Assembly (NCBI GenBank): GCA_963797555.1
Contig: CAWCPV010000006.1
Location: 64,001 to 128,000 of the forward strand
Direction: 5' to 3'
DNA length: 64,000 nucleotides
DNA from: an uncultured Gammaproteobacteria bacterium
GTDB lineage: Bacteria > Pseudomonadota > Gammaproteobacteria > CAWCPV01
The notes beneath the pieces were generated by a model that searched no databases, was not told the origin of the DNA, and worked only from the letters and a program-made list of their open reading frames with translations. A program made the translations under genes and the position numbers. Below are positions 41,963 to 60,263 of the stretch, one piece after another (position 1 is the first letter of the stretch; every line of letters starts with the position of its first letter).

Positions 41963-42038
<76 letters not shown>

Positions 42039-42078: not shown

Positions 42079-42155
42079 GCCCCGGTAGCTCAGCAGGATA
42101 GAGCGTCCCCCTCCTAAGGGGAAGGTCAGCCGTTCGAGTCGGCTCCGGGGCGCCA
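42079..42155 (+). tRNA. tRNA-Arg(CCT)
   Basis: GCCCCGG/CCGGGGC acceptor, anticodon arm TCCCC-CT-CCT-AA-GGGGA, TTCGA, CCA end. Confidence 0.96.
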
Positions 42156-42581
42156 CTCTCGGGAAGTGAAGGAGGCTCGGTGCTACCGCGGTGCTACCGA
42201 ACCAAGACCGGCCGGGGCGTTACCCGTAACGCGTTACGGTGCTGTTACGATGCGCCGGCAGGCACAAAAAACCCCGCGCGGGGCGGGGTGAAGGGGGTGG
42301 GGTACTACCCTACATGCTCGGGCGAGATTGGGGCGTTAGGCGAAGCCTACGCCCGCTGTGGGTGAGCAGTGTCGAGACTTGACACGGTGATGCGGACGGT
42401 GGTTCGATCCTATTCGTGCCTACCAGCTTCAAGACGGTAACAGAGGGTTCGGGGTAACCGAACCCACACCACAACCCCGCACGCGGCGAGGTCCAGGGTG
42501 GCGGGATGTTAGGGCTACGGGGTCCGTGTTGTCTCGGCTTCTGTCAGAAACTCAGTCCAGGCGCGCATGCACTAGGCTGTC

Positions 42582-42875
42582 ATGGCTAATAATCGCAAAG
42601 CTCGAAAGCAGATCAAGACCACCGTTCGCGCCATCAGCAACGCGCTGTATGGTGCCGGTACTGTTGTTCAGCTCTGGCCTGACTGCCCCACCATGCGAAA
42701 AATTGTGAGGTCGCCGGATGGTCGGTGGACGGTGCGTAGCTCTTCTGTCCCTGTCCACTGTGACCATGGCTATGCCTCTGATTGTGAGGCAATGCAAAGC
42801 GACTGGGTACGTATCGGCGGGGACGTGAAGGTGGCACTCGCGAAATGGCGACGTGACTACGAAAAGAAGGGATAA
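42582..42875 (+). CDS. Small hypothetical protein upstream of DUF2335 gene
   Basis: C-terminal D.EAMQSDW..IGGDVK.AL helix; overlaps the next gene. Confidence 0.55.
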   Translation: MANNRKARKQIKTTVRAISNALYGAGTVVQLWPDCPTMRKIVRSPDGRWTVRSSSVPVHCDHGYASDCEAMQSDWVRIGGDVKVALAKWRRDYEKKG

Positions 42876-43281
42876 GCGCCTACCGGAGGCGAAGGATGCT
42901 TTGTCCTCGCAGGATGCTTCCTCCCATCATCAAGGGGCGCCCCAGCAAATAACAGCCAAATGGCAAGGTCCATTACCGCCTCCCGCTTTACTTGATCAAT
43001 ACGAACGCACTCTGCCCGGTGCAGCCGAGCGCATTTTGGCCATGGCTGAGAAGGAACAAGGGCACCGGCACACCTTTGAGCAGTCCGCCATCCGCATTGA
43101 TGCCCGAGAAGCCTCTGTCGGGCAGTGGTTGGCGTTCGCCATCGGAGCGCTTACGATTATATGTGGCACCTACACGGCAACTCATGGAGCCCAAGTAGCC
43201 GGTGCCTTCATCGGAACCGGCGGCGTGGTTGGATTGGTTTCTGCCTTCATCTTCGGGCGGGTGCGTCGACCGCCAGATTGA
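42853..43281 (+). CDS. DUF2335-family membrane protein
   Basis: WQGPLPPPALLDQYERTLPGAAERILAMAEKEQGHR followed by two TM helices. Confidence 0.85.
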   Translation: MTTKRRDKRLPEAKDALSSQDASSHHQGAPQQITAKWQGPLPPPALLDQYERTLPGAAERILAMAEKEQGHRHTFEQSAIRIDAREASVGQWLAFAIGALTIICGTYTATHGAQVAGAFIGTGGVVGLVSAFIFGRVRRPPD

Positions 43282-43306
43282 GCTGGCGTACCGCTAGGAG
43301 CATCTC

Positions 43307-43795
43307 GTGACCATCCGTACGACGCCGGCGAAACTTCACTGGAACTACTTCCTGGCGTTAGAGCGGGATATGGACTTAACGTCTCGCTACGTCGAATTCT
43401 GCCAATCAAACTTCTTAGCTTTTTCTATAGAGTTTGCCCATCTTCTATTTGCCGCTGCATCTGAGGTTGATGTTGTTGCGAAGCTCCTCTGCGAACTAGT
43501 GGAGCCTGCTGCGCCGAGAGGAAATATCGATGCGTACAGGTCCGTTTTGCTTCCTGCGCTGCCAAATCTTCCCGATACCGAAGTAATTGTTCTTCGCTAT
43601 GGATTGACCTTCCAGCCGTGGGAGAACTGGGCTAACGGCGAGAATCCGGATTGGTGGCGCTACTACTCCCGCAAACTAGCCGCACAGCCAAATGAAGTTC
43701 TGGCCCCGAAGGACACGACGCAACAGTTGTATCCCCAGTCAGAATTGATTCGTCTCCACGGAGACTACTACCACAGATATCTAGTGGCTTCTTGA
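43307..43795 (+). CDS. Lower-GC hypothetical protein, possibly internally deleted
   Basis: HWNYFLALERD...SRYVEF...FSIEFAHLLFAAASEVDVVAKLLC...PWENW...NPDWW; AGGAG RBS. Confidence 0.6.
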   Translation: MTIRTTPAKLHWNYFLALERDMDLTSRYVEFCQSNFLAFSIEFAHLLFAAASEVDVVAKLLCELVEPAAPRGNIDAYRSVLLPALPNLPDTEVIVLRYGLTFQPWENWANGENPDWWRYYSRKLAAQPNEVLAPKDTTQQLYPQSELIRLHGDYYHRYLVAS

Positions 43796-43940
43796 GCCCT
43801 CGGTGTGTCACGGGCAGCGCTCGCAGTCGGGGCCCGGGGCCTAACGCGGGAAGGGGCGGAGGGGTGACTGTGGGAACGAGCGTGGCGCCGGTCGGGGATG
43901 AGTAGTATCAGAAACGGCAAATCTAACCACGGATTCTTCA

Positions 43941-43965
43941 AAAAAACCCCCGGCCGAAGCCGGGG
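43941..43965 (-). terminator. Intrinsic terminator for the minus-strand satellite operon
   Basis: AAAAAA-CCCCCGGC-CGAA-GCCGGGG on plus strand, i.e. hairpin plus U-tract on minus. Confidence 0.55.
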
Positions 43966-44076
43966 AGGAAGGAGCGACAGACGAAGTTGCCGCGTCGCGC
44001 CGGGGAGTGAGGCCGGCGACCGGAGCGGTGCGTCCCGCAGCCCGCGGTTCTCAGCGCAGGCGGCGGCCGGTGGGCT

Positions 44077-44283
44077 TTACTTGCGGCGCCCTACATGCCC
44101 CAGGGCGGCAGTACGCTCCTGTCCCAGCTCCAACGCCATGGCCTCGGAGCGCGACATGCAGAACAGGACTTTCGAGTCACCTACGAGCCGTTGACCCTCG
44201 GCAGCGCTGATGACACTGCGCACAAAGGCAAACGTACCGTCGTGCCGGCGGCGCATCACAACCCAGGGATCGCGTCGACTCAT
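44077..44283 (-). CDS. Small hypothetical protein
   Basis: MSRRDPWVVM...; ATGA overlap with 44280..44546. Confidence 0.4.
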   Translation of the reverse strand: MSRRDPWVVMRRRHDGTFAFVRSVISAAEGQRLVGDSKVLFCMSRSEAMALELGQERTAALGHVGRRK

Positions 44284-44546
44284 TGCAACCCCTGCGCCGC
44301 AGGGCACAGCGTCGATCCAGCGGGTATCTCGGTCACGTCCAACGGCTGCGTAAAAAGCAGCCCGTCGCCGGTAATCATCGCAAAAACTCCAGCCGACTCC
44401 TCGGTGCAAACCGCGACGGCAGGAATCCCGGGCACAGAATCACGAAGTTTGGCCGCAACCGCAGTGGCGCATTTACGGCAAATTCCGGCATGGCGCTGGA
44501 ACGAACGCGATGCAGCTCGGACTTGGGTACGGGTCAGGGTGCTCAT
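44280..44546 (-). CDS. Small hypothetical protein downstream of capsid gene
   Basis: TAATG overlap with the capsid stop; CxxC motif. Confidence 0.5.
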   Translation of the reverse strand: MSTLTRTQVRAASRSFQRHAGICRKCATAVAAKLRDSVPGIPAVAVCTEESAGVFAMITGDGLLFTQPLDVTEIPAGSTLCPAAQGLQ

Positions 44547-45595
44547 TATGCGGTTGCCTTCACAATACCGTTCCGGCCAATTGCCTGAATCCCGGTAATG
44601 AACTCGAATCGAAACGCTTGACCGTCATACGTTAGTGGCGTGCGGACTCGGGAAACACTCGGAGTATTCGGGAAGTTCAGCGCCATCCTGGCGATGACGG
44701 GTGCAATCGCCGGGTCACCCATTAGATAGGATGCCCCGCTCGGCAACCATGGGTTGCAGATAACTTGAATACCAGGAACGCCAGCATACAAACTCGCCAC
44801 GGTGGCCGCCGCTGCGATCTCCGAATCGCCAGGGACCACCCAAAACGCAGGCTTGATATTGCCGACGTTGCCGACTCCCGTGGTGTTCGTCCGCAACTTC
44901 GCGGCCGCATTACCCAAACCCGTTATCGTGGCGACTCCACCCGAGACCGAATTGCCGGCGCCGATCAACGGTGCGCCGTCGCCCAAATTGCCGTTTGCCT
45001 GAATGACAGCGGCAATCTGCGCCGCTTCTATTCTCGCCGCATGTCCCGACAATTGCTCGGTCGCCGAAATAATAATGTCCGCGTCACCATTGATCAACAT
45101 TTGGCGAGAGACGAGAAAACGCGCACCAAAAACAGAAGGCTCCCCGGTGACTCCGGCACTGGCGAGAATCGGAGCGAATTGAATCGGTCCTCCGCTCTTC
45201 GGAATAAACGAAAGCTCGCCCAGATCCAGCTCGGGAAACGAAATCGGCCTAAGATCGCGAGCTACGATGTCCCGACAAATAGAGCCATGCTCCGCAGATT
45301 GTTTATCGTAGCTGATGGCGGGAACTCGCGACAACGCGACGGCGAGAGCCTCCCCAAAATCCGACGTGGTTAGCTGTCTCGTCGCTTCGGAGCCGGTGCG
45401 CCCGCTGCCATGGCCGCTCAAATGCGCTGCGATGTCAAGCAACGAAACTCGCTCGTCCGGGCCGTTGAGCAGCTCCGCGACCGGGTGCGCGTCGGGCACG
45501 CGCTGCCCAGCTCGGAGGAGGAGAAAATCAGGCAGAGCTTCGAGAATGTCTTGCCTGGCGAACGGAATCGGTCGGGTCAATCGTGGCTCTGGCAT
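44546..45595 (-). CDS. Phage major-capsid-like protein (probable HK97 fold)
   Basis: TTSDFG..L, FGARFLVSRQMLINGD, GNLGDG.PL....N, IKPAFWVVP, and a C-terminal RFE....AIGRNGIVK resemble lambdoid/Mu-gpT-like capsids; AAGGAGG RBS. Confidence 0.72.
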   Translation of the reverse strand: MPEPRLTRPIPFARQDILEALPDFLLLRAGQRVPDAHPVAELLNGPDERVSLLDIAAHLSGHGSGRTGSEATRQLTTSDFGEALAVALSRVPAISYDKQSAEHGSICRDIVARDLRPISFPELDLGELSFIPKSGGPIQFAPILASAGVTGEPSVFGARFLVSRQMLINGDADIIISATEQLSGHAARIEAAQIAAVIQANGNLGDGAPLIGAGNSVSGGVATITGLGNAAAKLRTNTTGVGNVGNIKPAFWVVPGDSEIAAAATVASLYAGVPGIQVICNPWLPSGASYLMGDPAIAPVIARMALNFPNTPSVSRVRTPLTYDGQAFRFEFITGIQAIGRNGIVKATA

Positions 45596-45719
45596 GGTCA
45601 CCTCCTTGATCATGGCGTTATACACATCTCCCCGTAGCTAGGGCTGCTGCCCCTCTGGACACAGCCCCCGGAAGCTGATTCAATGCCCCCATCGTTCACC
45701 AGGTGACGAGGGGGAGCAG

Positions 45720-46592
45720 ATGGAGAAGGGGTTGCCGAGGTGGTTGGGTGGGCGCGTGCTGAGCGCGGGGGAGCTTGAGAGCATACGGCGGGAGGCTCGG
45801 CTGGCGGAGCCCCGAGTGCGAGCCGAGGTGGCGCGGCGGGTGTGTCGGGTGCTGGGGTGGACCGATGCAGCCGGTAGGCCCAAGCTGATGAGCTGTCGAG
45901 TCGGGCTGCTGCGGCTGCATCGGGCAGGCTGGATCGAGCTGCCGGCGCCGCGCAACGGTAACGGCAATGGGAAGGGGCTGTCGCGCGAGCCGCAAGATTG
46001 GCCCGCTGAGGTACCGGTGGTGGGCGCAGTGCGGGATTTGCAGGGTCTGCACTTGGCGCCGGTTGCTGACCCGGCGGACTCGGCGCTGTGGAATGGGCTC
46101 ATCGACCGGTACCATTATTTGGGCTACCGGCCGCTGCCCGGTGCCCAGCTGCGCTATCTGATTCGCTGGGACGCGGGTGTGGTGGGGGCCATGGGCTTCG
46201 GGGCCGCGGCCTGGAAGGTGGGCGTGCGCGACCGCTGGATTGGCTGGGATGCGCCAAGCCGTGCGCAGCACCTGGGGCAGGTGCTGAACCATGCGCGGTT
46301 TCTCATTCTGCCGTGGGTGCGGGTGGCGAACCTGGCCTCCAAGGTCCTCGGGCGGGCCGCGCGGCAGGTGCCGGGCGAGTTCGAAGAGCGCTACGGGGTA
46401 CGCCCGGTGCTGCTGGAGACCTTTGTCGAGGCCGGCCGGTTCGCGGGCACCTGCTACCGGGCGGCCAACTGGCATCATCTGGGGCAGACCACCGGGCGGG
46501 GCAAGCTCGACCGTGAGGCGCTGCCCATCAAGGATGTCTATGTGTATCCGCTCGATGGCCGCTTTCGCCGGGCGCTCGGGGGAGCCGCATGA
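45720..46592 (+). CDS. DUF4338 (DruA-like) domain protein
   Basis: WNGLIDRYHYLGY..LPGAQLRYL, RDRWIGW, RFLILPWVRVANLASKVL, LLETFV, GTCYRAANW..LGQTTGRG. Confidence 0.88.
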   Translation: MEKGLPRWLGGRVLSAGELESIRREARLAEPRVRAEVARRVCRVLGWTDAAGRPKLMSCRVGLLRLHRAGWIELPAPRNGNGNGKGLSREPQDWPAEVPVVGAVRDLQGLHLAPVADPADSALWNGLIDRYHYLGYRPLPGAQLRYLIRWDAGVVGAMGFGAAAWKVGVRDRWIGWDAPSRAQHLGQVLNHARFLILPWVRVANLASKVLGRAARQVPGEFEERYGVRPVLLETFVEAGRFAGTCYRAANWHHLGQTTGRGKLDREALPIKDVYVYPLDGRFRRALGGAA

Positions 46593-47923
46593 ATGCCCTG
46601 GCCGAGGAGCTGGCCGCCATCGACTTGGGTGATGCGCGCCTCAACCGCCGGGCGCGACGCACCCTGGAGAAGCTGGGAGCCCATCCCATGCAGAGCATTC
46701 CCACCGCCTGTGGCGGCTGGGCCGAGACCTTGGCGGCTTATCGGCTGTTCGACCATCCCCAGGTCACCGCCCAGGCGGTGCTCGAGCCCCATTACGCCTG
46801 CACCGAGCAGCGTATGCGCGAATACTCGGTGGTGCTGTGCATCCAAGACACCACGGAAGGGGACTATAGCGGCAAGAACGACATCGTCGGGCTGGGCCCG
46901 CTCAACTACGAGACCCGCCGTGGATTGTACCTGCACCCCACCCTCGCCGTGACCCCCGAGCGGGTGCCCTTGGGGCTATTGGATCTATGGAGCTGGACCC
47001 GCGAGGCGGGCAGTCTGGGCAAGGAGCAGGGCCGCCGGCCCATCGAGGAAAAAGAGAGCCTGCGCTGGCTGGAGGGTTATCGACGCGTCTCGGAGCTCAT
47101 CGAGTCCCTGCCCGAGACCCAGTTGGTCTATGTCGCCGACCGCGAGGCCGACATCTACGAGGTGCTCGCGGAACGCGCCGCCACGCAGCCCTGCGCCGAG
47201 TGGCTCATCCGCGCCGAGCGCGCCCGGCTCGCAAGCGCGCCGGTGCTGGCCGAGGCCGAATTCGACCTGCCCGCCACCGCTAGGCGTCCGGCGCGGCGCA
47301 TCCACCAGCAACTGCGCGTCGCACGCCTCACTTTCAAGGCCCCGCATCGCTCGGACCGCACCCTGGCGGACATCGAGGTGAGCGCCGTGCTGGCCCGCGA
47401 GGTGGACCCGCCCCAGGGCGAGGAGCCCATCGAGTGGCTGCTCCTCACCAGCCTCCCCGTCGAGACCGCCGAGCAGGCCCTGGAGAAGCTCCAATGGTAC
47501 CTCTGCCGGTGGCAAATCGAGGTGTTCTTCAAGATCCTCAAAAGCGGCTGCCGCATCGAGAAGCTGCAGCTCGAGACCCTCGAACGCCTGGAGCCCGCGC
47601 TCGCCTTCTACCTCATCATCGCCTGGCGGGTGCTCTACCTCACCCTGCTCGGGCGCGACTGCCCGCAGATGCCCTGCAACGTGGTGTTCGCCGAGGAGGA
47701 ATGGCGCGCGGTGTATATCGTCACCAAGCGCCAGCCCCCGCCTGAGACACCCCCCTCGCTCGATGCGATGGTGCGTATGGTGGCGAGCTTCGGCGGCTTC
47801 CTCAATCGCAAGGGCGACGGCTTCCCGGGTCCGCAAAGCCTGTGGATCGGGCTGCAGCGAACCCGCGACTTCGTGCTCGCCATGGACGCACAACGGGCCT
47901 CACAGAGCCCGAGATGTGTATAA
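46589..47923 (+). CDS. IS4-family (Tn5-like) transposase
   Basis: LGDARLNRR, IQDTT, VADREADIYE, WLLLT, YREK motif YLCRWQIEVFFKILKSG, GGFLNRKGDGFPG. Confidence 0.93.
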   Translation: MNALAEELAAIDLGDARLNRRARRTLEKLGAHPMQSIPTACGGWAETLAAYRLFDHPQVTAQAVLEPHYACTEQRMREYSVVLCIQDTTEGDYSGKNDIVGLGPLNYETRRGLYLHPTLAVTPERVPLGLLDLWSWTREAGSLGKEQGRRPIEEKESLRWLEGYRRVSELIESLPETQLVYVADREADIYEVLAERAATQPCAEWLIRAERARLASAPVLAEAEFDLPATARRPARRIHQQLRVARLTFKAPHRSDRTLADIEVSAVLAREVDPPQGEEPIEWLLLTSLPVETAEQALEKLQWYLCRWQIEVFFKILKSGCRIEKLQLETLERLEPALAFYLIIAWRVLYLTLLGRDCPQMPCNVVFAEEEWRAVYIVTKRQPPPETPPSLDAMVRMVASFGGFLNRKGDGFPGPQSLWIGLQRTRDFVLAMDAQRASQSPRCV

Positions 47924-47937
47924 GGACATGCCTTGAT

Positions 47938-48331
47938 GCCCTATCAGACCGTGCCTGGAACCGCAATTGCTGCGGGTATTTTTCAGTATCTCGTAAGGCT
48001 GGCGACGCGATGTCGGGACATGGCAGCCCGAAGCCAGGACAGCTTGAACTGTTGCGCCAACATCGCCCGTGCGAACCTTGCGACGTAGCAAGATTGAGAT
48101 CTGCCCGGCGAGCGCCCACGTGGACCGCGAGCCGGTAGGGTCCACCAGCTCCCCAAGCCTGGCAATCGCGGAATCTCGCAACTGACGGGCGCCCGGGCCC
48201 GCCAGATCCAGGGCGTGCTCTAGGTCCTCACCGGACTGCCAACGGGTCAACGCCTCCGTGATCCAGCCGGCGAGACCCGGGTCGTGGACCCGGGCCAGCG
48301 CGACGAGCTGGTTGAGCCGAGATCGGCTCAT
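47938..48331 (-). CDS. Hypothetical satellite protein (3' end at the IS insertion site)
   Basis: ATGA-coupled to the upstream ORF; WQSGEDLEHALDLAGPG segment. Confidence 0.45.
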
Positions 48332-48531
48332 CTTGGAATGGGCGATGCCGTCGGTGGTGATGTCGGTGGTGGTTGTGGTCGCACCGAATGTGCGCCAAGG
48401 ACCGCATGAGCGTGGAGCAGCGAGGTCAACGCCTTGTCGGCCGCCTCGAAGGAGGCGATAACATCGCCCTTGTGCGCCGGCTTTAGGTGGCCTTCAATCT
48501 CGTCATACAGCGTTTGAAGTTGAATCAGCAT
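48328..48531 (-). CDS. Small hypothetical protein
   Basis: GAGGTG RBS then MLIQLQTLYDEIE; co-oriented in the operon. Confidence 0.45.
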   Translation of the reverse strand: MLIQLQTLYDEIEGHLKPAHKGDVIASFEAADKALTSLLHAHAVLGAHSVRPQPPPTSPPTASPIPR

Positions 48532-48545
48532 AATCGCGCACCTCG

Positions 48546-49079
48546 CTATTGTGGAATTTGGACGTCCCACGCCTGCGCCAACTCGATGCAGACGGCGCGT
48601 CCTTCGGCCTTCAGCTTCTCGTACACGGCGCGCTCGTCGGTCTCGGCTGCCAAAATTGGCGCGAGTCTATCGGCCAGCGCTAATATACGGTCGCGAGCGG
48701 TGCGGGCACCCATAAACGCTGTGGTCTCGACGCGGCTTCGCTCCACCAGCTCGCCGGCGCGCTCGCGAATCCGCATGTCGATCAATTCGCGCTGACTCTT
48801 GGCAAGCTGCGCTCTCTCTTGGTCAAGGCGAAGGTGAATGTCGGCCACTTGCTCCCCGAAGTCCTCACGGATCTTTTGGCGCACAGCCCAAAGGACCACG
48901 CTTCTCGGGTCGAATCGGTGCGCTTGCCCGCGCCGGCCGCGTTCCCAAATTGGAAGCGGGTCGTTCCTGCGCGTGGTAAGCGTCGTCAGCCATCGCGGCG
49001 TAATACCCCCAAGCACATAACGGGTTTGCTCGGAGCTCCACAGGTAGGAACCGGGCGTTAATTTGGCGTTGTCATCCAA
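48546..49079 (-). CDS. Terminase small subunit-like protein (lambda Nu1/DUF1441-like)
   Basis: N-terminal wHTH (G+TPRWLTTL...LP...RG..HRFD...V..W), coiled coil ERAQLAKSQRELIDMRIRERAGELVER; AAGGAG RBS. Confidence 0.72.
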   Translation of the reverse strand: MDDNAKLTPGSYLWSSEQTRYVLGGITPRWLTTLTTRRNDPLPIWERGRRGQAHRFDPRSVVLWAVRQKIREDFGEQVADIHLRLDQERAQLAKSQRELIDMRIRERAGELVERSRVETTAFMGARTARDRILALADRLAPILAAETDERAVYEKLKAEGRAVCIELAQAWDVQIPQ

Positions 49080-49164
49080 CGTACGAACTCCTTAGGGAAG
49101 TGTTAGCCTACGGATTTATCGCCGGCTTGCTCGCTCGCAGCGAAGGGACGCCAGGAGAACCTAG

Positions 49165-49848
49165 TCATCGCAGCCCGCCCTCCGCCAGCGCCGCCAACAC
49201 ATCGCCGTGACACGGGAGCGGAGAACACCAGCAGCCCAAGCGTTTTCCTCGAAGCTCTGGCAGCCGGGCCATCAGCTCCGGTTGGGTCAGTATCCAAGCC
49301 CGGTACTTCGCGATGACCTCCGCGCGATCCCCGTCGCGGCCGATGCGATAGGGGTTCGCCCATGGGGATGCGGGCAATCCAAGGCGCGGGACGGCGCGGC
49401 CAATGTACACGTTGTATGGCTCACGCTGGCAGTGCACCACACTTGTCGTGCTCACGCGGTCCGCCCAGGGCTCCACCGTCGCGTCCGGATACACCTTGGC
49501 GATGATGGCGCGGGCCTCAGCCGGAATGGCGGCCGGCACGAAGTCGAAGGTGCGGGTGGTGCCGTCCGGGAGGGAGGCGAGAAAGCGCCAGGCTTTTGGC
49601 ACTTCTGGCACTGCCTGGTGTGGCACATCCGTGAATTTCATACCCCCTTCGACGGCCTCTTCCACCCGGTCATCGACACCATGAATTTTTGCGGATGTGC
49701 CAGGGGGGGTAGTGCCAAAAGTGCCAGAAGGGTCACTTTTCAGGCTTTCGGCACTTCTGGCACTGGGGGGTGTGCCACATTTCAGAATTTTCAGTCTGGC
49801 GATAGCGTCCATGGTCGTGGTCAGATCAGGCTCGGGTGGATGGTCCAT
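49165..49848 (-). CDS. Hypothetical protein with C-terminal DUF4326 domain
   Basis: VVHC....VYIGR...SPWANPY......VIAKYRAWI...LRGKRLGCWCSPLPCHGDVL. Confidence 0.8.
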   Translation of the reverse strand: MDHPPEPDLTTTMDAIARLKILKCGTPPSARSAESLKSDPSGTFGTTPPGTSAKIHGVDDRVEEAVEGGMKFTDVPHQAVPEVPKAWRFLASLPDGTTRTFDFVPAAIPAEARAIIAKVYPDATVEPWADRVSTTSVVHCQREPYNVYIGRAVPRLGLPASPWANPYRIGRDGDRAEVIAKYRAWILTQPELMARLPELRGKRLGCWCSPLPCHGDVLAALAEGGLR

Positions 49849-52297: not shown

Positions 52298-52298
52298 G

Positions 52299-54523
52299 TC
52301 ACGCAGCCTCGCCCGCGTCGAAGCGCCGCGTCCGCCGCGCTAAAAGCGCGTTAAGGTCACTCAGACGGTACTGACAGGTCCGCCCCACGCGGATGTAAGG
52401 CAACGCGTTGCGGCCGCTCGATGCCCAAAGCTCTAGGGTTCGAACCGGAACGCGGAGATACTTTGCGGCTTCTTCGCGAGTTAGCCCGACTTCGCGGATT
52501 CGCACGGCGATTGGCCCGCTGGCCAGGGGTAAGTGATTGTTTGTGGGGACCGTGGTGAGCCAAAAAGGGTTGAAACGCGCTGTAGTGAAGACCTTGCTTG
52601 TTTTCAAGGGGAAAAATCTGCGGATAATGATGTTCCATCATGTTTCTACGGGCCACGACGCGGAAGAAAGACGGCAAGGAGCACCGTTACTGGAGTATTG
52701 TCGAGAATAGGCGCCTGAGCGGTGGGCGCGTGCTGCAACGGCATGTGCTGTATTTGGGTGAGATCAACTCCTCGCAGGAGTTGGCGTGGCGCAAATCCAT
52801 TGAGGTGTTCGAAGACGGGGCGCTGACACCGCGCACGATGTCGTTGTTTCCCGAGGAGCGATCTGAAGAGCTGTCGAGGGATGCTTCGGTGGTACGTTTG
52901 CGGCTGAAAGAATTGCGGCTGTGCCGACCGCGGCAGTGGGGTGCGTGTTGGCTGGCGCTGCAACTGTGGGAGGAATTGCAGTTAGATCGCTTCTGGTGGG
53001 AACGGTTAACGCCGAGTCGCAAGGGCACTCGGTGGGATCAGGTGTTATTCGTGCTCGTGGCCTATCGGTTGCTGGCACCGGGCAGCGAGTGGCGGTTGCA
53101 CCGGGAGTGGTTTGGCCGTACGGCCTTGACGGATTTGCTCGGAGCGGATGCGGCGCTCTCCGACAGCCACCGGCTGTATGTCTGTCACGACCGCTTGCTG
53201 GAGCACAAGGCGGCGGTCTTTGACCATCTGGTGCGGCGGTGGCGGGATCTGTTCAATGCCACCTTCGAGGTGCTGCTCTACGACCTCACGAGCACCTACT
53301 TTGAGTGTGAGCCCCCGCAGTCGGAGCAGGACAAACGACGATTCGGCCACTCGCGCGATAAGCGCAGGGACTGTGTGCAGGTGGTGATCGCCTGGGTGGT
53401 GACCCCGGAAGGCTTGCCCTTGGCCTATGAAGTGTTGGCGGGCAATACGGCCGACAAGACGACGTTGAAGGAGTTCCTCGCGCGCATTGAGCGTCAGTAC
53501 GGAAGAGCGCAGCGGATTTGGGTGATGGACCGCGGCATTCCGACCGAAGCGGTGCTGGAAGAGATGCGCGCAAGTCGCCCGCCAGTGCACTGACCTGGTG
53601 GGCACGCCCAAGGGGCGGCTCAGCAAATTGGAGAGCGCGCTGCTGCTCAAGCCGTGGCGGGAAGCGCGCCCCGGCGTAGCCGTGAAACTGTTGGCGCAGG
53701 ATGGGGAGCTGTATGTGTACGCGCAAAGTGAACAGCGCGTGGCGAAGGAGCGTGCGATACGACGGCGCAAGCTGAAGTGGTTATGGGCGCGGTTGAAGAA
53801 ACTCGCGACCATGCAGCTCACCCGCGAGCAACTGCTGATGAAGCTCGGTGCGGCGCGCCAACACGGCCCAGCGGTATGGCGCTTGGTTCAACTGGAGGTC
53901 GACCCCAAGGACGCCACGTTTAGCTACCGCCTGCGCCGCGATAAGCTGCGTGAAGTGCGCCGGCGCGAAGGACGGTATCTGCTGCGCACCAATCTCACCG
54001 ACACCGATCCCGCCAAGCTATGGGGGTTTTACCTGCAACTGGTGGCGGTGGAAGAAGCGTTCAAGAATCTCAAGGGGGATTTGGCCATTCGGCCAATCTT
54101 TCATCAACACATCGAGCGTATCGAAGCCCATATCTTCATTGCCTTTCTTGCCTATTGTCTGCATGTCACGCTCGGGCGACGTTTGCATGCGCTCGCGCCT
54201 GGATTAACCACGCGCAGCGTGCTGGAGAAATTCGCCGCCGTGCAGATGGTCGACGCACAGGTGCCGACCACCGATGGGCGCGAATTGACGTTCACCCGCT
54301 ACACCCAACCTGAGCCAGAACTGCAACTGCTCCTCGCGCAGTTGAAGCTCGAACTGCCCGCACCACCAGCTCCGAAAATCAGCACCGCCCACACTGCCTC
54401 AGCCGCCGCGATGTAGTGCAGACCTTGCCAGGCGCCCTCTCGCAATTTCAACCACTTACGCTATCCCTACCCCGCGAATCCGCGAAGTCGGGCTAGGCGC
54501 GGGTCCGGGTCAACGAAAGGCAT
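52299..54523 (-). pseudogene. Excisionase/AlpA-like HTH gene split by IS1634
   Basis: Removing the IS restores MPFVDPDPRL-TREEAAKYLRVPVRTLELWASSG...LPYIRVGRTCQYRLSDL in frame; GAGGTG RBS upstream of ATG54523. Confidence 0.8.
52484..54493 (+). mobile_element. IS1634-family element; transposase 52640..54416 with a 1-nt frameshift at ~53591
   Basis: Perfect inverted repeats GCCCGACTTCGCGGATTCGC and GCGAATCCGCGAAGTCGGGC; LYDLTSTYFE, GHSRDKRRD, VMDRG, VEEAFKNLK..LAIRPIFH. Confidence 0.92.
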
Positions 54524-54589
54524 TTTTGCTCACCTCACGGGCTGTCAACTTGCGGTGAGATGAGTAAAACAGCGAAGGCGGCCTTGAAC

Positions 54590-55243
54590 TTAGCTCGTGT
54601 CCGTTTTTTTGTTGAGAATGCGCCGAACCTGGCGCACGCTCTTGTCCACGCGGCGTGCAATTTTTGACGCCCACTCGTGACGTGGGGTCGTTCCTGCCCG
54701 CTCGAAGGCTCCGGCCGCGTTCAGGACGCGGGCCTCGGTGTTCCTGCCCCGCACGATGCCGGCGTTGACCCCCCCTTTGTGGCGCCCTGTTTGCACGCGA
54801 CGCCCGTGCCCCGCGTTGGTCTCGTGGGGCCTGACATGAGCCCTGCCCACTGCGAGCCCCAGGTTGACCGCAAGATGAGCGAGCAACCTCCGGTCCGCTG
54901 CGCGGTCCCCGATGGCCTGCTTGACGTGCTCGCAGCCCTCTAACACATCCCTGGCGTCGCGGCCTTCGTCGGGTAGGCTCGTCCGGTCCAGGGTCCGCCA
55001 CAGCCGGGCGTCATAGCCGAGACGCTCAAGCCTTCGTCTGGCCTCTGCCTCCCAGGAGGCCAGGATAGCGGGAAACCGTGCGGCGCTGGTCTCGTTGAAC
55101 TGCCTCAGCGCCTCTTCCCTGTCGTGCTCCCGCTCCCGCCACTTCTTCCACCAGCGCTTGGGTGTCGCCGGCCACTTCTCTAACGGCTCCGGGCCAAGCG
55201 GCTCGGTTTGCTCCTCGAAGAACTCAGAAACGCGCCGGGTCAT
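54590..55243 (-). CDS. Hypothetical protein downstream of integrase, possible C-terminal HTH
   Basis: ATGA overlap with the integrase stop; C-terminal ASKIARRVDKSVRQVRRIL. Confidence 0.6.
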   Translation of the reverse strand: MTRRVSEFFEEQTEPLGPEPLEKWPATPKRWWKKWREREHDREEALRQFNETSAARFPAILASWEAEARRRLERLGYDARLWRTLDRTSLPDEGRDARDVLEGCEHVKQAIGDRAADRRLLAHLAVNLGLAVGRAHVRPHETNAGHGRRVQTGRHKGGVNAGIVRGRNTEARVLNAAGAFERAGTTPRHEWASKIARRVDKSVRQVRRILNKKTDTS

Positions 55244-56400
55244 GTGCCGGTCTTGATGTCTTGCACGTCGGCGATCGGCAGCACGCCCGCGGCGGCCAGC
55301 ATGGCGCGGGTGGCCTTCTCGAGGGACGCCCGCACTGGGTCCAGGTTCAGCCTGGCGTAAATGGCGGTGGTGCTGACGTTCGAGTGCCCCAGGCTCTTGC
55401 CGATAGTGACGAGGCTTGCCCCGGTGGCGGCCTGCCAGCTCCCGAGCGACCGGCGCAAGTCATGAAGGTGCAGGTCCTCGACGCCCGCACGTTTCTTGAC
55501 CGCTACCCATGCCCGCTTGGGCTCGACCATGTGCCCGGTCTTGCCCCGGCTCGGGAAGATCCACGGGCTGTCCCCGGCGAACACGCGGCGAGTTTCGAGT
55601 ACCGCGACGGCCTCCGCTACCAACGGGACCGTCAGGGCCTCGCCGGTCTTGGTCTGCGGGATGCGCCAGGTGGCCTCTTCGATCCGCACGTCTTCCCAGC
55701 GCATGGCGAGCACGTTGCTGCGCCGGGCGCCGGTCAGCAGAGCGAGCAACAGGAAGTCGCGCGTGTCCCGCGGGGCCTGCGCGACGGCCTCGAAGAACCG
55801 GGGAAGCTCGCTCGGCTGCAGAAAACGATCGCGGGAGCGCTCCCGGAACTTGGTGACTCCTTCGGCCGGGTTGTCACCCTTCCACAGCTCCCAGGCGATG
55901 GCGCGGTTGAACATGGCCCGCAGCATGGAAACGGTCTTGTTGGCGGTGGTGTGTCCCTCTCCCGCCCCAGGCGCATATGCAGCGCCCGCACCTCGGAACG
56001 GCTGATGGCGGAAAGCTTCCGGCTCGCCCACGGGGCGAGGTACAGGCCCCAGTAGCTCTCGGGGTTCTTGGTCCGCTTGCCTTGAGCCTTGATGTGCTCT
56101 TCGAGGTATTGCTGGTATAGCTCCCCCAGGGTCAGCTCTGCCCGCTTGGCGCGCAGGGCGGCCTGCGGGTTGTCCCCCGAGGCGATGGCGCCGTTCAGCT
56201 TCTCGGCTCTTTGGCGTGCCAGGAATACCGTCATGGCGGGCCAGCGCCCGAGCAGCACGCGCTCGGGCTTACCGTCCAGCTTGCGGTAGAGATAGAAGCT
56301 CTTGGCGCCGCTCGGCTGCACACACAACGCCAGGTGCGGCGTCTTGGAGTCGTAGAAGTAAGTGCGCACCGGGTCGGGGGCGAGCGCCTTGACCACTGAG
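55240..56400 (-). CDS. P4-like tyrosine integrase; frameshift at ~55950, start uncertain
   Basis: Arm-binding N-terminus (YDSKTPHLALCVQPSGAKSF...LGRWPAMT), catalytic TGARRSNV, HDLRR, LGH, TTAIYAR. Confidence 0.88.
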
Positions 56401-57249
56401 ATACCGGCACTTGAGGAGATGGGAGGCCGTCGAGTGCGCCAAGGGGGATCTGGAGGAACCATGTCCGGGTACCCTCACTTTAATCTTCCGTGAAACGCAA
56501 TGGATGAGTACTCTCTGGAATCGTTCGAGCACTATATTGAACTGGTAGGGCACGGATCGCCAGGTAAACTGCGGTTGTTTCGCGGTCAATCCACGGATGA
56601 ACCTCTGCTTCCCAAATTGGCTCGCTTGCGACTGCGCTCTGCTATAAGAATAGAAATAGCAGAAAAACGCATGTATGAGGATTTCAGACGAAGAAGTCTT
56701 CCGTTTCTGGAACATGTGCCAAGTACTACATGGGATTGGCTGGCATTGATGCAACACTCATGGACTGGCCACCCGCCTTCTTGATTGGACGGCAAACCCG
56801 CATGCCGCGCTGTGGTTTGCAACGGAAAAGGGCTCTTTCGGTAATTGTGTGGATCGTGGTGGTCGAGTAGCATCCGTTCTGAGCAATCGTCTATCACAAC
56901 ATCTTGTGGTTGGGCCTGTGGGGTTGTGGGCGAGAGGCCCGCGAGTGTGGGCAACCGGGAGGTTGTCCACACGGTCCTTGGGACGCGGGCCGCTCCGCAG
57001 GACTCGTCCACAAATCCACAGGCCATCAAGGGGGGAGCGCCATGGAGCCAACGCATCTATTCACGACGGCACTGGGCCTCACGGCGCCTTGGGAAGTCAC
57101 CAGCGTACGCTTTGACCCCGAGGCTGGGCGCATCGACCTCGAGGTGGCCTTTGCCAAGGGGAGCCGCTTCGCCTGCCCGGCGTGCGGAGCGCCAGGCCAG
57201 CCGGTGCATGATACCCGCAAGCGCAGCTGGCAGCACCTGAGCTTCTTTA

Positions 57250-58351
57250 CTAAGTCCATTTTAAGTAAAGCCATATGTTGGTACAATGGGGGCATGAAAT
57301 GCAAGCGCGAATCGGACGGGCGCAAGCTCGATCATAGGAGCCTGCAGGTGCTGCGCCAGCAAGCCGTGAAAGCGGTGCGTCACGGACAGACGGTACAGAG
57401 CGTAGCGCAGGCCTTCGGGTTGAACATTCGCACCGTGTTTCGCTGGCTCTCGGCATTTGCCTCGGGGGGACAGAACGCGCTGTTGGCCAAGCCGATCCCG
57501 GGCCGCCCGCCGCTGCTTGGCGCCGAGGAGATGCGCTGGCTGGCGGGGGCGGTGCGCGAGCACACGCCGCAGCAGTTCCGATTCGAGTTTGCGCTGTGGA
57601 CCCTGCCGCTCATCGGCAGGTTGATCGAGCGGCGGTTCAACAAGCGCCTTTCGGACTCCGCCGTCAGGCGGGTGATGCGGGTGCTGGGATTCACTGCCCA
57701 GAAGCCGCTCTACCGTGCCTGGCAGCGCGATCCGGTGCTGGTCGAGCGCTGGCAGAAAGAGCAATTTCCCGCCATCCAGGCCGAGGCCAAGCGCGTGGGG
57801 GCAACCATCTACTTTGGGGATGAGTCGGGGATGCGCTCCGACTACCACGCCGGCACCACTTGGGCGCCGATGGGCAAGACCCCGGTGGTCGCGGTGACCG
57901 GGGCGCGGTTCTCGCTCGCCATGCTCTCGGCGGTGAGCGCCCGCGGGGGCTTGCGCTTCATGGTGCACGAGGGGACGGTGACCGCCGCGGTGTTCAAGGA
58001 ATTCCTCAAGCGCCTGCTGGTGGGCGCCACCCGGCCGGTCTTCCTCATCGTCGATGGCCATCCCATCCACAAGGCACGATTGATCCAGGACTTCATCGGC
58101 GAACAGAACGGGCGCCTTAAGCTGTTCTTCCTCCCCCCGTACTCGCCCCAACTCAATCCCGACGAACAGGTTTGGGGGCATGTGAAAGCCCGCGTCGCCA
58201 AGCGCCGGGTGGAAAGCAAAGAGGATCTCAAGAGCAAACTCCTCGGTGCTTTGCGCCGGCTCCAGAAGCTGCCAGAAATCGTCAAAGGCTTTTTCATGCA
58301 TCCGCATTGCTGCTACGCTGTCTGATATGGCCTTACTTAAGAAAGGATTAG
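57250..58351 (+). mobile_element. IS630-family element nested in ISL3
   Basis: Inverted ends CTAAGTCCATTTTAAGTAAAGCCATAT and ATATGGCCTTACTTAAGAAAGGATTAG; TA duplicated; the empty site CTTTAAGTCACG is visible in the other ISL3 copy (~21960). Confidence 0.94.
57294..58325 (+). CDS. IS630-family transposase
   Basis: HTH, YFGDESG, IVDGHPIH, LPPYSPQLNPDEQVW. Confidence 0.94.
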   Translation: MKCKRESDGRKLDHRSLQVLRQQAVKAVRHGQTVQSVAQAFGLNIRTVFRWLSAFASGGQNALLAKPIPGRPPLLGAEEMRWLAGAVREHTPQQFRFEFALWTLPLIGRLIERRFNKRLSDSAVRRVMRVLGFTAQKPLYRAWQRDPVLVERWQKEQFPAIQAEAKRVGATIYFGDESGMRSDYHAGTTWAPMGKTPVVAVTGARFSLAMLSAVSARGGLRFMVHEGTVTAAVFKEFLKRLLVGATRPVFLIVDGHPIHKARLIQDFIGEQNGRLKLFFLPPYSPQLNPDEQVWGHVKARVAKRRVESKEDLKSKLLGALRRLQKLPEIVKGFFMHPHCCYAV

Positions 58352-60263
58352 TAAGTCACGGGCAGACCTGCACGCGCATCTGCCGCGAGTGCGCTGTGAG
58401 AGCTGCGGCAAGACGACTCAGGTCGAGCCGCCGTGGGCGCGCGCACACAGTGGCTTCACGGCGCTGATGGAGGCACTGGTGGTGACGCTGTGCCAGGCGA
58501 TGCCGGTGGCGACCGTCGCCCGGCACCTGGGCGTGGGCGATGAGCGCCTGTGGGGGGTGCTCGAGCACTACGTGGAGGCGGCCCGCGCCTAGGAGGACCA
58601 CTCCCCGGTGCGCGCCGTGGGCCTGGACGAGACCGCCGCCCGGCGTGGGCAGCACTACATCAGCCTGTTCCATGACCTCACGGGCAAACGCCTGCTGTTC
58701 GCCTGCGAGGGCCGCGACCAGAGCACCGTGGCGGCCTTTGCCGCCGACCTCCAGGCGCACGGGGGCGACCCGCAGGCCATCGAGCAGGTGTGCATCGACC
58801 TGTCCGCCGCTTATCTCGCCGGGGTGACCAAGCATCTGCCTAAAGCCACGGTGAGCTTCGATGCCTTCCATGTCATCCAGCTCGCCAACCAGGCCGTCGA
58901 TACAGTGCGCCGCGAGGAGGTCAAGACCGAGCCCGCCCTCAGGGGCACCCGCTGGACCTGGCTCAAAGACGCCCACGACTGGACCTGGGAGCAGCTCACC
59001 GACTTTCACTGGCTCTCCCGCGCCCGCCTCAAGACCGCCCGCGCCTGGCGCCTCAAGGAGGCGCTGCGCGATATCTACGCCACGGCCAGCACCCTCGAGC
59101 AGGCCGAGACCGCGCTCACGCGCTGGTATAGCTGGGCACGGCGTAGCCGCCTGCAACCCATGAAACACCTCGCTGCCACTCTGAAAGACCACTGGGACGG
59201 TGTGCTCGCCGCGTTCGACTCCGGCCTCACCAACGGCCGCGCCGAGGGCATCAACTCCCTCATCCAGGCCGCCAAAGCCCGCGCCCGGGGCTACCGCACC
59301 ACGCGCTCGCTCATCACCATCGCCTACCTCATCGCGGGCAACCTGGCCCACTTGCCGGCCTCGCCGTTCAACACACGATCTTGTGTCAGACCTCAGGCAG
59401 AGGCTGCCGCAGCGTAAGCATATCTACCCACACGATTCCGGTAAGAACCCGGAAAAGCCACCGAAGAAAGACAAGAACGATGAACCAAGGTCGGGCGTGG
59501 TTTGGGTATTTCGACCCGCTGGTCCAGATATGGTTGATATCGCGAAATCACGAGATCCCTTTCAAGCCACGCGAACGCAGGTATTTCAGCCAAGCCATAT
59601 CACTCGCCGCATCATTGCGCAATTCGGTTGGTTTACGGCACACAAACTCATAGACGGAGAGAAGATTGTGCCACTGGAGGACAATGGCCTCTACGAGAAG
59701 AAGCTAACGAAAATAATGATCCAACCGGAAATGTTTTCGAAGATGAGATCTACGTTAAATATATTTGGCATAAATTCAGGCGTGCTATTTCCAGACCTTG
59801 TTGGTTTGTGTGAAGCCATACAATGGGAAAGCTCTTGTTTGGAAGACGAAAAGCCAGGACTACGCAAACCAGTGCTATTCTTTCAAAGCGATGGGCCGAT
59901 AAAAATCCGCCGTAAGCCCCGGCCGACGCGGATAAAGCTGCGGCCGATCAGGGGGTAGCACGCAAAGAGGAACCGCCCGCGCCGGGGTCCGGGATTTCGG
60001 TCGCCCCGCCATGCCACATGCGGTGGCTGGCGTCTCACGCGGGCTACGATGGTGTTACGCTCGCACGTCCACGCTTACCCTGCTCTTCCTCGACTTCCCT
60101 GACGAGCGCTCGCGCTCAGCCCAATGCGGCCAGTATTTCCAGGGGTGACGCCAGGATGGCCGCTTTCCGGCCGTGAGGGACGCGAACGGGGGTGGGGCGG
60201 GGGACTTATGGGCGGGCGTGGGGTTAGGGGAGTAATTATTGCGGAATACGAATGCAGACTACC

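Follow-up and report, generated by a model that had tools for sequence, protein, structure and literature searches.

Gene content and borders of the island

What kind of mobile element carries a capsid gene and a small terminase gene next to an integrase and a replication module, and is it still able to move? This question is raised by the interval 42156..60150 of the window, i.e., the stretch of 64,000 nucleotides analysed here, which corresponds to C6:64001-128000 in the genome of an uncultured gammaproteobacterium (5.35 Mb, 20 contigs, 84.6% complete). The relatives drawn for comparison share only the class level with this host. The island starts at the 3' end of a tRNA-Arg (CCT) gene and is most probably a phage satellite of the type of the phage-inducible chromosomal islands (PICIs), which measures about 10 kb without its insertion sequences (ISs) and is now defective. 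The initial annotation had read the locus as a PICI-like satellite that brings its own capsid and a Nu1-like small terminase (TerS), and this is borne out by the gene set, the predicted fold and a series of relatives bounded by attachment (att) sites. The features that carry this reading are the following:

42079..42155, plus strand: intact tRNA-Arg (CCT), called by ARAGORN, 3' end toward the island
44546..45595, minus strand: major-capsid-protein homologue of 349 aa without protease domain (PF25209, 5.6e-20)
48546..49079, minus strand: Nu1-like TerS (phrog_57, 7.9e-16)
49165..49848, minus strand: DUF4326 gene, domain at residues 137-219 (PF14216, 2.6e-26)
49597..49777, no strand: cluster of iterons, eight TGGCAC/GTGCCA copies as inverted triads, directly 3' of the helicase gene
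49821..51470, minus strand: DUF3987 helicase-type replication protein (PF13148, 2.2e-85; phrog_2373, 1.4e-23; open reading frame listed as 49821-51563)
51467..52297, minus strand: primase-like protein of 276 aa (phrog_3228, 1.6e-14; phrog_9765, 9.3e-7)
52299..52481, minus strand: AlpA/excisionase-like HTH_17 gene, cut by an IS (open reading frame listed as 52299-52607, 102 aa)
54590..55243, minus strand: hypothetical protein of 217 aa, between integrase and alpA
55240..56462, minus strand: tyrosine integrase with arm-binding domain (PF00589, 3.1e-28; PF13356, 2.1e-11)

On the minus strand the order is integrase, 217-aa hypothetical protein, AlpA-like helix-turn-helix (HTH) protein, primase-like protein, DUF3987, DUF4326 and Nu1-like TerS, followed by two small open reading frames (ORFs), the HK97-fold capsid gene and again two small ORFs, and the Pfam and PHROG scans recovered this run where it had been annotated. 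Families of portal, large terminase (TerL), protease, tail and lysis proteins were not detected among the 46 ORFs scanned with Pfam and the 28 scanned with PHROG. The 3' end of the tRNA-Arg gene faces the island and therefore marks the attL side, and the same geometry is found in the relatives. Subtracting 6,962 bp of IS from the 17,995 bp of the interval leaves about 11.0 kb, as had been estimated, and the distance from the tRNA end to the integrase start is 9,966 bp with two ISs taken out, which is within the range of the family.

For PICIs, five core components have been published, namely integrase, regulator, primase-replicase, a capsid morphogenesis module, which is commoner in Proteobacteria, and a small terminase (PMC10085698; the descriptions of known satellites given here and below follow the available portions of the papers cited). 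Other structural or lysis genes are absent from PICIs, and the capsid-forming PICIs (cf-PICIs) are set apart by head-tail adaptor, connector and terL genes (PMC10085698). Homologues of all five components are present in the island and no other virion gene was detected among the ORFs scanned: next to the integrase, the HTH_17 gene would represent the regulation module (an alpA, merR or stl homologue), the primase-like and DUF3987 genes with candidate iterons at their 3' side the putative primase-replicase and origin, the capsid homologue of predicted HK97 fold the capsid morphogenesis module, and the TerS, by its phrog_57 match and the reach of its family profile to lambda gpNu1, the small terminase. 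Moreover, EcCICFT073, the prototype of such PICIs, carries capsid and decoration genes (PMC6092414). Since the gene set comprises the five published components and EcCICFT073 also has a capsid gene, the element is of a known kind; the combination of capsid and TerS genes is not unusual, contrary to what had been supposed, because both belong to the published core (PMC10085698) and a capsid gene is found in EcCICFT073 (PMC6092414).

A capsid protein without its protease

The capsid ORF was listed as 44546-45625, and its true start is the ATG at 45595, which is preceded by AAGGAGG. The protein aligns to positions 280-630 of the NCBIfam model NF045541, a prohead protease/major capsid fusion of 634 positions, and therefore represents the capsid part alone. 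An AlphaFold2 model built from 69 sequences has a mean predicted local distance difference test (pLDDT) score of 94.6, and Foldseek matched it to phage capsids and encapsulins with E-values of about 1e-8, a probability of 1.00 and template modelling (TM) scores of 0.4-0.55, the capsid of the cf-PICI EcCI2 (9gyi_B) being among the matches. Model and structural matches point to the HK97 fold, the fold on which the initial annotation had made its reading depend. Among 1.84 billion representatives, 7,173 proteins matched the profile of the family at E<=0.001, 226 of them also at E<=1e-30; the best matches are mostly stand-alone proteins of about 340-390 aa, and the rest are protease-capsid fusions of 600-680 aa.

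Att-bounded relatives in the same and in other genomes

A tblastn search with the island proteins revealed four more elements in the genome. Three of them (L015, L016 and L017) lie within 45 kb of contig C3 (308282-354181) at tRNA-Glu, tRNA-Val and tRNA-Leu, and the fourth (L018, C4:825777-835325) lies at tRNA-Lys. Direct repeats of 46-61 bp, which correspond to the 3' half of the tRNA, flank each of them at a spacing of 8,702 to 9,816 bp, and two capsid-gene remnants were found in addition (C3:300861-301985 and C14:474117-474858). Among 400 further genomes of the class, a six-frame profile search detected the capsid family in 12, and the genomic context was taken for eight of these 12 (two unpublished genomes were left out and two were not fetched). 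Four contexts (L039, L045, L044 and L042) are att-bounded islands of 9,552-10,527 bp at tRNA-Pro, tRNA-Glu, tRNA-Leu and tRNA-Pro, respectively, all with integrase, replication gene and capsid gene, three of the four with an AlpA-like HTH gene, and two (L039 and L045) with a recognisable Nu1-like or TerS-like gene. In L044 and L045 the capsid gene has a long form of 619-647 aa, a ClpP-type protease domain being detected only in L044. Two contexts are partial elements (L041 at a contig start, L030 on a contig of 3.5 kb). L047 is a full head module of TerS, gpA TerL, lambda-family portal, protease-capsid fusion, cement, gpZ-like protein and tape measure, and L046 resembles it but shows no TerL or TerS in the part fetched.

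The four sister elements and the four islands of other genomes make up eight relatives, which are bounded by repeats of 46-61 bp, measure 8,702-10,527 bp and sit in eight different tRNA genes of five genomes. They share the order integrase, regulator, replication gene, packaging/capsid module, cargo and tRNA, not every gene being present in every copy. In all seven att-resolved relatives that have an integrase gene, this gene lies at the end with the displaced tRNA fragment, away from the intact tRNA, which faces the capsid/cargo end; in the intact-looking copies the integrase starts 123-214 bp from the repeat. The tRNA-distal integrase that had been put forward as a family trait is thus found in seven of seven cases. 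For the proposal of an undescribed subfamily, only this trait and the capsid lineage are left as a basis, its two other markers failing: the relatives use AAA_25, PrimPol-AAA_25, Toprim-D5_N or other replication genes in place of the primpol-DUF3987 replicon, and DUF4326 occurs in two of the nine elements compared.

The same gene content might in principle be left by a full prophage after deletion of the genes for portal, TerL, tail and lysis. ISs and pseudogenes abound in the genome, and in a phylum-level sample, in which 41 of 400 other genomes matched the capsid profile at E<=1e-15, nearly all with open frames of 600-790 aa, homologues of TerL and portal stand beside the fusion gene in all 20 loci sampled (chosen for long contigs), which would fit such an origin. 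However, eight relatives at eight tRNA genes in five genomes are equally reduced within intact att repeats 8.7-10.5 kb apart, the closest capsid relatives are all found in such small units, and a primase-helicase replication module with an adjacent origin is typical of satellites. Neither genes nor relicts of tail, lysis, portal or TerL were detected in the element or its closest relatives, such genes being confined to distant relatives with fused capsids, and relatives of the kind that the initial annotation would have taken as the sign of a decayed prophage were not encountered among the eight att-bounded islands, which are devoid of portal and TerL. A prophage remnant is therefore extremely unlikely and largely refuted already, and we return to the satellite.

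To place its capsid, a maximum-likelihood tree of the capsid domain with 29 rows was considered. The stand-alone capsids of five portal-less or partial elements (the window copy, L016, L039, L041 and L030) group in one clade (support 94/83), and the fused capsids of the satellites L044 and L045 nest in different head-module groups; the positions of L042, L030 and the C3 remnant, all with long branches, are uncertain. Portal-less satellites thus seem to have acquired capsid genes from this phage lineage more than once. In the phylum sample, three loci (L054, L056 and L062) comprise TerS, gpA TerL, portal, protease-capsid fusion and cement, directly followed by integrase and tRNA; L064 is built in the same way with no TerS detected, and L055 spans 15.3 kb between two tRNA-Pro calls. 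By their gene content, these five look like cf-PICI-like elements from the same head lineage.

Such head-only units with integrase and tRNA give some ground to the idea that the window element descends by reduction from a capsid-forming PICI that once had portal, TerL and head-tail connectors. Yet the integrase mostly adjoins the tRNA in these units (L054, L056, L062 and L064), which is the opposite geometry, and the clade of stand-alone capsids is long-branched and separate. A relict of portal or TerL is not recognisable in any of the nine elements, and the portal, TerL and head-tail families by which a cf-PICI is told were not detected in the window element or the eight relatives. We give this descent hardly any credence and keep to a satellite that combines a capsid gene and TerS with the machinery of a helper.

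The small terminase, a conserved block and the small neighbours of the capsid gene

The assignment of the window TerS is strengthened by its family. The paralogues in the genome pass the cut-off of PF07471 (Phage_Nu1) with 55.9, 36.8 and 33.2 bits, and the family profile matches the DNA-binding domain of lambda gpNu1 (6hn7_B, 3.5e-14; 1j9i, 1.4e-12) and, more weakly, RppC (3.7e-6). Furthermore, the profile reaches the ORF just upstream of the gpA TerL in the complete head module L047 (3.5e-41). Immediately 5' of terS the following block is found:

49080..49162, minus strand: non-coding block of about 85 nt with an imperfect palindrome

It is kept in all five terS-bearing elements of the genome, the TerS proteins of which are only about 28-40% identical. 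Genome-wide, its core motif occurs only in four of the elements and in one probable chance match, the copy of L015 having diverged, and the block was not found in the elements of other genomes. In lambda, the packaging site is located directly upstream of Nu1. The block could be a candidate cohesive-end (cos)/packaging site or a late promoter.

Four small conserved ORFs surround the capsid gene:

44077..44409, minus strand: small conserved ORF, homologues at the equal position in three paralogous elements
44280..44546, minus strand: conserved ORF of 88 aa that follows the capsid gene directly, with paralogues in L016, L017 and L015
47931..48331, minus strand: 'capN', conserved all-helical small protein (ORF listed as 47900-48331, 143 aa)
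48328..48570, minus strand: conserved ORF of 80 aa between TerS and capN, homologues in L018, L016 and L017

The 3' end of capN is cut by an IS that replaced its last codons, and the IS-free ORF has 158 aa. Its AlphaFold2 model (pLDDT 73.7) consists of seven helices without significant sequence or fold match in the PDB; a homologue search returned two proteins, both unnamed or hypothetical, and an atlas search only hypothetical clusters. A relation to the protease/scaffold part of the fused capsids was rejected (hhalign probability 0.2%). It was also considered that the IS might have split the capsid gene, with the 143-aa ORF as its N-terminal part; this was rejected because the two ORFs are separate in the paralogues too, and because the capsid gene starts at an ATG behind a ribosome-binding site of its own. 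The prediction of a complex of capsid and capN scored 0.00 and gave no answer, which is evidence for neither side. For the 88-aa ORF, an identity as phage cement protein was rejected (probability 0.3%). The ORF at 44077..44409 probably begins with the ATG at about 44283, so that its start and the stop of the preceding ORF overlap.

Regulator, replication genes and a candidate origin

The HTH_17 domain is matched by PF12728 (5e-9, residues 42-92 of the fusion ORF) and TIGR01764 (4.1e-7). The 217-aa protein encoded between integrase and alpA has no match in Pfam, PHROG or PDB sequences, and a homologue is present at the equal position in L045. With regard to the primpol-DUF3987 protein of the initial annotation, both parts are present, as two genes and not as one, joined by the stop/start overlap TTGA; the likely start of DUF3987 is the TTG at 51470 behind a GGAGGAGG motif. 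The 276-aa primase-like protein shares 61% identity with the N-terminal part of an AAA_25 protein of 634 aa encoded on contig C9 (L019), and the primase domain is thus common to two different island types. L019 itself (C9:267000-275600) is a capsid-less island at tRNA-Phe with an integrase adjoining the tRNA, an AlpA gene and the 634-aa AAA_25 gene.

Of the 40 TGGCAC/GTGCCA hexamer matches of the window, eight fall within the 181 bp of the iteron cluster. The 5' part of the listed DUF4326 ORF overlaps this region, and a homologue in L018 has 103 aa. Of the five relatives that were inspected, three (L039, L044 and L045) carry distinct iterons of their own directly 3' of the replication genes; in L018 there is one perfect 19-nt repeat pair, and nothing clear was seen in L016. 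Published PICI origins lie 3' of the replication gene (PMC6092414). By position and repeats, the cluster at 49597..49777 may be the replication origin.

Proposed life cycle and helper

From this gene content the following cycle may be proposed. A siphophage whose head module is lambda-like, with a Nu1/gpA terminase, a lambda-family portal and a protease-capsid fusion protein, would infect the cell or be induced in it, and the AlpA-like protein together with the integrase would excise the island, which the primase-like protein and the DUF3987 helicase would replicate from the TGGCAC iterons. The TerS of the island might then bind a site on the island DNA, for which the block of about 85 nt before terS is a candidate, and recruit the large terminase of the helper. 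The protease-less capsid homologue would enter or redirect the capsid assembly of the helper, in which the surrounding small proteins may take part, so that small heads with room for about 10 kb would form, as with Ccm of SaPIbov5, and portal, protease, large terminase, tails and lysis functions would be supplied by the helper. Dependence on a helper, origin, packaging site and role of the capsid are all deduced in this way, whereas the gene content, the fold, the architecture of the family, the att sites of the relatives and the damage to the window copy are observed. The type of the helper is suggested by homology only: the TerS profile leads to L047, and the capsid family is found in head modules with gpA-type TerL and lambda-family portal, which fits the lambdoid cos-type helper proposed initially.

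Several observations weigh against the satellite reading. An attR, i.e., a copy of the tRNA-Arg 3' half, was not found in the window, including the part right of the integrase, so that the right border is undefined. The window TerS itself has no Pfam match at E<=0.01. No match to GpA_ATPase, TerL_ATPase, Terminase_6N, Phage_portal, Phage_portal_2 or PhageMin_Tail was found in the genome, and gpA TerL (GpA_ATPase) is also missing from the other four genomes (98-100% complete) in which intact-looking relatives reside. The helper prophage that was to be looked for in the host was not recovered with these three TerL, two portal and one tape-measure families; the genome is 84.6% complete, so its absence is not proven. 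Scans of viral contigs, metagenome contigs and genome contigs with capsid alignments gave pattern matches and no confirmed relative, including the relatives of about 11 kb that were to be looked for in viromes, and tblastn against 50,697 phage records gave two weak matches (26% identity, E 6e-4 to 8e-4). In EcCICFT073, deletion of the capsid or decoration gene did not relieve interference (PMC6092414) and the island is packaged in full-size heads (PMC6092414, PMC6739421); a size-redirecting role of a PICI capsid gene is therefore not general. Finally, excision, replication, packaging and particles are deduced here from the architecture and from precedents.

That no helper was found in five genomes also bears on the possibility that the island acts outside phage particles as an integrative defence island, the capsid and TerS serving as decoys that poison the assembly and packaging of phages. 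Satellite proteins resembling capsid and TerS are described to block helpers (Ccm, PMC5052747; Rpp, PMC6739421), and members of the family carry candidate defence and toxin-antitoxin cargo. Nevertheless, the narrow size range, the replicon and the candidate origin argue for packaging as a unit, and a full-length TerS with its N-terminal DNA-binding domain suggests, as far as its sequence can tell, recognition of the element's own DNA. We consider such an island highly improbable. Somewhat more room, within what is still a doubtful proposition, can be given to a 'half capsid-forming' class of satellites intermediate between PICIs and cf-PICIs. If this were true, the capsid protein would build a whole small shell sized for about 10 kb, fused to a protease in some members and stand-alone in others with capN as private scaffold, and the element would take no more than portal, large terminase and tail from its helper. 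This helper would then be exogenous and possibly virulent, because none of the five host genomes carries a gpA terminase. The preferred reading remains a PICI-type satellite that would act on the capsid assembly of a lambdoid helper.

Damage to the window copy

The interval contains four ISs in all, and these are multi-copy, the genome holding 8, 10 and 10 near-full-length copies with those of the window counted in. The features concerned are:

45611..47930, plus strand: Tn5-like IS of 2,320 bp with 19-nt ends and the 7-bp target duplication CCTTGAT, encoding a DruA/DUF4338-like ORF and a transposase
52482..54495, plus strand: IS of 2,014 bp bounded by perfect inverted repeats of 22 nt, its DDE_Tnp_1 transposase encoded in two frames
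56500-~56829 and ~59451-59958, plus strand: PDC-S15-like candidate defence gene of low G+C (PADLOC PDLC04938, 1e-20 and 1.1e-35)

The Tn5-like IS (8 copies including that of the window) lies 15 nt upstream of the true capsid start and truncates the upstream ORF capN. The second IS (10 copies including that of the window) cuts alpA at about codon 10, the lost ~10 codons being located at about 54496-54525; residues 1-42 of the listed 102-aa ORF are encoded by the IS and recur across the genome. The integrase is split by a single frame change near 55945-55962 (tblastn frames -1 and -3). An ISL3 element (~56830-59450), with an IS630-like element nested in it (57247-58354), interrupts the PDC-S15-like gene.

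The search for attR comprised exact matches, three mismatches, k-mers and local alignment, and yielded nothing that exceeded shuffled controls. Local scores were 17-19 in three windows right of the integrase vs. a shuffle maximum of 22, and higher scores were found elsewhere, in the flank of the query itself (32) and in a gapped match upstream of the tRNA (28). Of the two att sites, the window shows the attL side at the tRNA-Arg, and both repeats are present in the eight relatives. The PDC-S15-like gene starts 38 bp beyond the integrase start, where relatives carry attR. Possibly this gene took the place of the att site, or else it could be part of a second island.

The other copies have decayed as well, all five in the genome being damaged, each differently. 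In L015 the integrase is truncated and stops interrupt the capsid gene; L016 has neither integrase nor alpA and a fragmented replication gene, its TerS-capN-capsid module being intact; in L017 the integrase is frameshifted and the capsid gene broken; and L018, with an intact integrase of 406 aa, PrimPol-AAA_25, DUF4326 and TerS, has no capsid gene.

It might be argued that the satellite is still mobile, the frameshift being an assembly error and the ISs leaving enough function, or the sister elements acting in trans. The ORFs of capsid, TerS, helicase and primase-like protein are intact, the integrase keeps its conserved C-terminal motifs on both sides of the single frame change, and L018 could contribute its intact integrase. 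This integrase, however, targets a different tRNA, alpA lacks its first ~10 codons and the promoter side, and an IS separates the capsid gene from the operon; the missing attR and the damage to five of five copies likewise speak against mobility, which we hold to be very unlikely. The copy can probably no longer move because the integrase is frameshifted, alpA and capN are cut by ISs and attR is missing, and it is very probably dead. The initial description was right for the run of genes and missed that the copy is defective, that the genome holds several paralogous copies and that no helper is found there.

Comparison with known satellites

The closest parallel among known systems is EcCICFT073, the annotated region of which (about 10.7 kb) comprises integrase, HTH, small genes, primase, SSB, PerC, a 351-aa capsid, decoration and three small genes. 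Both elements have about 10-11 kb and the order integrase, AlpA-type regulator, primase replicon with adjacent origin, capsid and small genes, and both encode a packaging-specificity protein and no portal, TerL or tail; the helper of EcCICFT073 is a lambdoid cos phage (PMC6092414, PMC6739421). In contrast, the RefSeq capsid of EcCICFT073 is not significantly similar to that of the window (BLASTP E 0.084), EcCICFT073 has Rpp and no TerS whereas the window family has a full Nu1-like TerS, its annotated region contains no tRNA whereas the window family is located in tRNA genes with a distal integrase, and the window host is sulfur-oxidiser-like and without close sequenced relatives. PmCI172 is described to encode a capsid homologue and to make small capsids.

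In SaPIbov5, the capsid homologue Ccm has the HK97 fold with a shortened N-terminal domain and causes small capsids (PMC5052747). It resembles the window protein in lacking part of the N-terminal region of the helper protein, and the helper of SaPIbov5 is a cos phage; unlike the window element, SaPIbov5 resides in a Gram-positive host, bears no sequence relationship, carries the cos site of the helper and has no TerS (PMC5052747). By analogy, the window capsid may function like Ccm. The cf-PICIs EcCIEDL933 and EcCI2 likewise have their own HK97-fold capsid and TerS (PMC10085698, bioRxiv 10.1101/2022.09.08.507074), and differ by their head-tail adaptor/connector and terL genes (PMC10085698), none of which was found in the window element or the eight relatives. 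The marine virion-encapsidated integrative mobile elements (VEIMEs) are small integrative elements of environmental bacteria with integrase, AlpA, primase/helicase and TerS homologues, but, as far as described, lack a gene for a major capsid protein, and their concatemers are packaged into heads of full size (PMC9618062).

The architecture is known, and what sets the element apart is its capsid lineage, the possession of a true TerS where EcCICFT073 has Rpp, the insertion at a tRNA gene with the integrase at the far end, and its host. General understanding of satellites is not changed by this element. With it, PICI-type satellites that bring their own capsid and small-terminase genes are now seen in a sulfur-oxidiser-like lineage that has been poorly sampled; satellites in sulfur oxidisers were not found in the literature searched, and the supplementary tables of PMC10085698 may list such elements. 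Moreover, the genome shows that such satellites can pile up and decay in one host, with five copies, all damaged, and no helper found. The nine comparable elements, with clean att sites, element-specific iterons and the block before terS, offer a tractable case for the role of capsid genes in satellites.

Further features of the locus

Accessory genes on the opposite strand had been noted at both ends, and are found as DUF2335 with its neighbours on the left and the PDC-S15-like gene on the right. The left end comprises:

41963-42038, plus strand: tRNA-Ala (tRNA call)
42582..43795, plus strand: cargo between operon end and tRNA, consisting of a 97-aa ORF, a DUF2335 membrane protein (42853-43281) and a 162-aa ORF
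43947..43966, minus strand: strong terminator-like hairpin with 8 pairs and a T run at the end of the late operon

The DUF2335 protein matches PF10097 (2.7e-17) and phrog_3996 (2.9e-35), which belongs to the 'moron' category, and the cargo genes at 42582..43795 have no PADLOC match. Just after the tRNA-Arg 3' end, at 42160-42260, GGTGCTACCG occurs twice together with several GTTACG/CGTAAC motifs, and these short repeats may be arm-type sites of the integrase. Among the sister elements, toxin-antitoxin cargo is seen in L018 (13418-13940; YoeB-like toxin and antitoxin) and a HigB/RelE-like toxin in L016 (15728-15997).

Contigs from four soil-metagenome runs mostly represent IS copies, with only small pieces of low depth on island genes. 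In the Tn5-like IS, the DruA/DUF4338-like ORF (PF14236, 2.6e-44) lies upstream of the transposase gene, and a second DruA-like ORF (L019:14742-15398) adjoins an IS66 element on contig C9.

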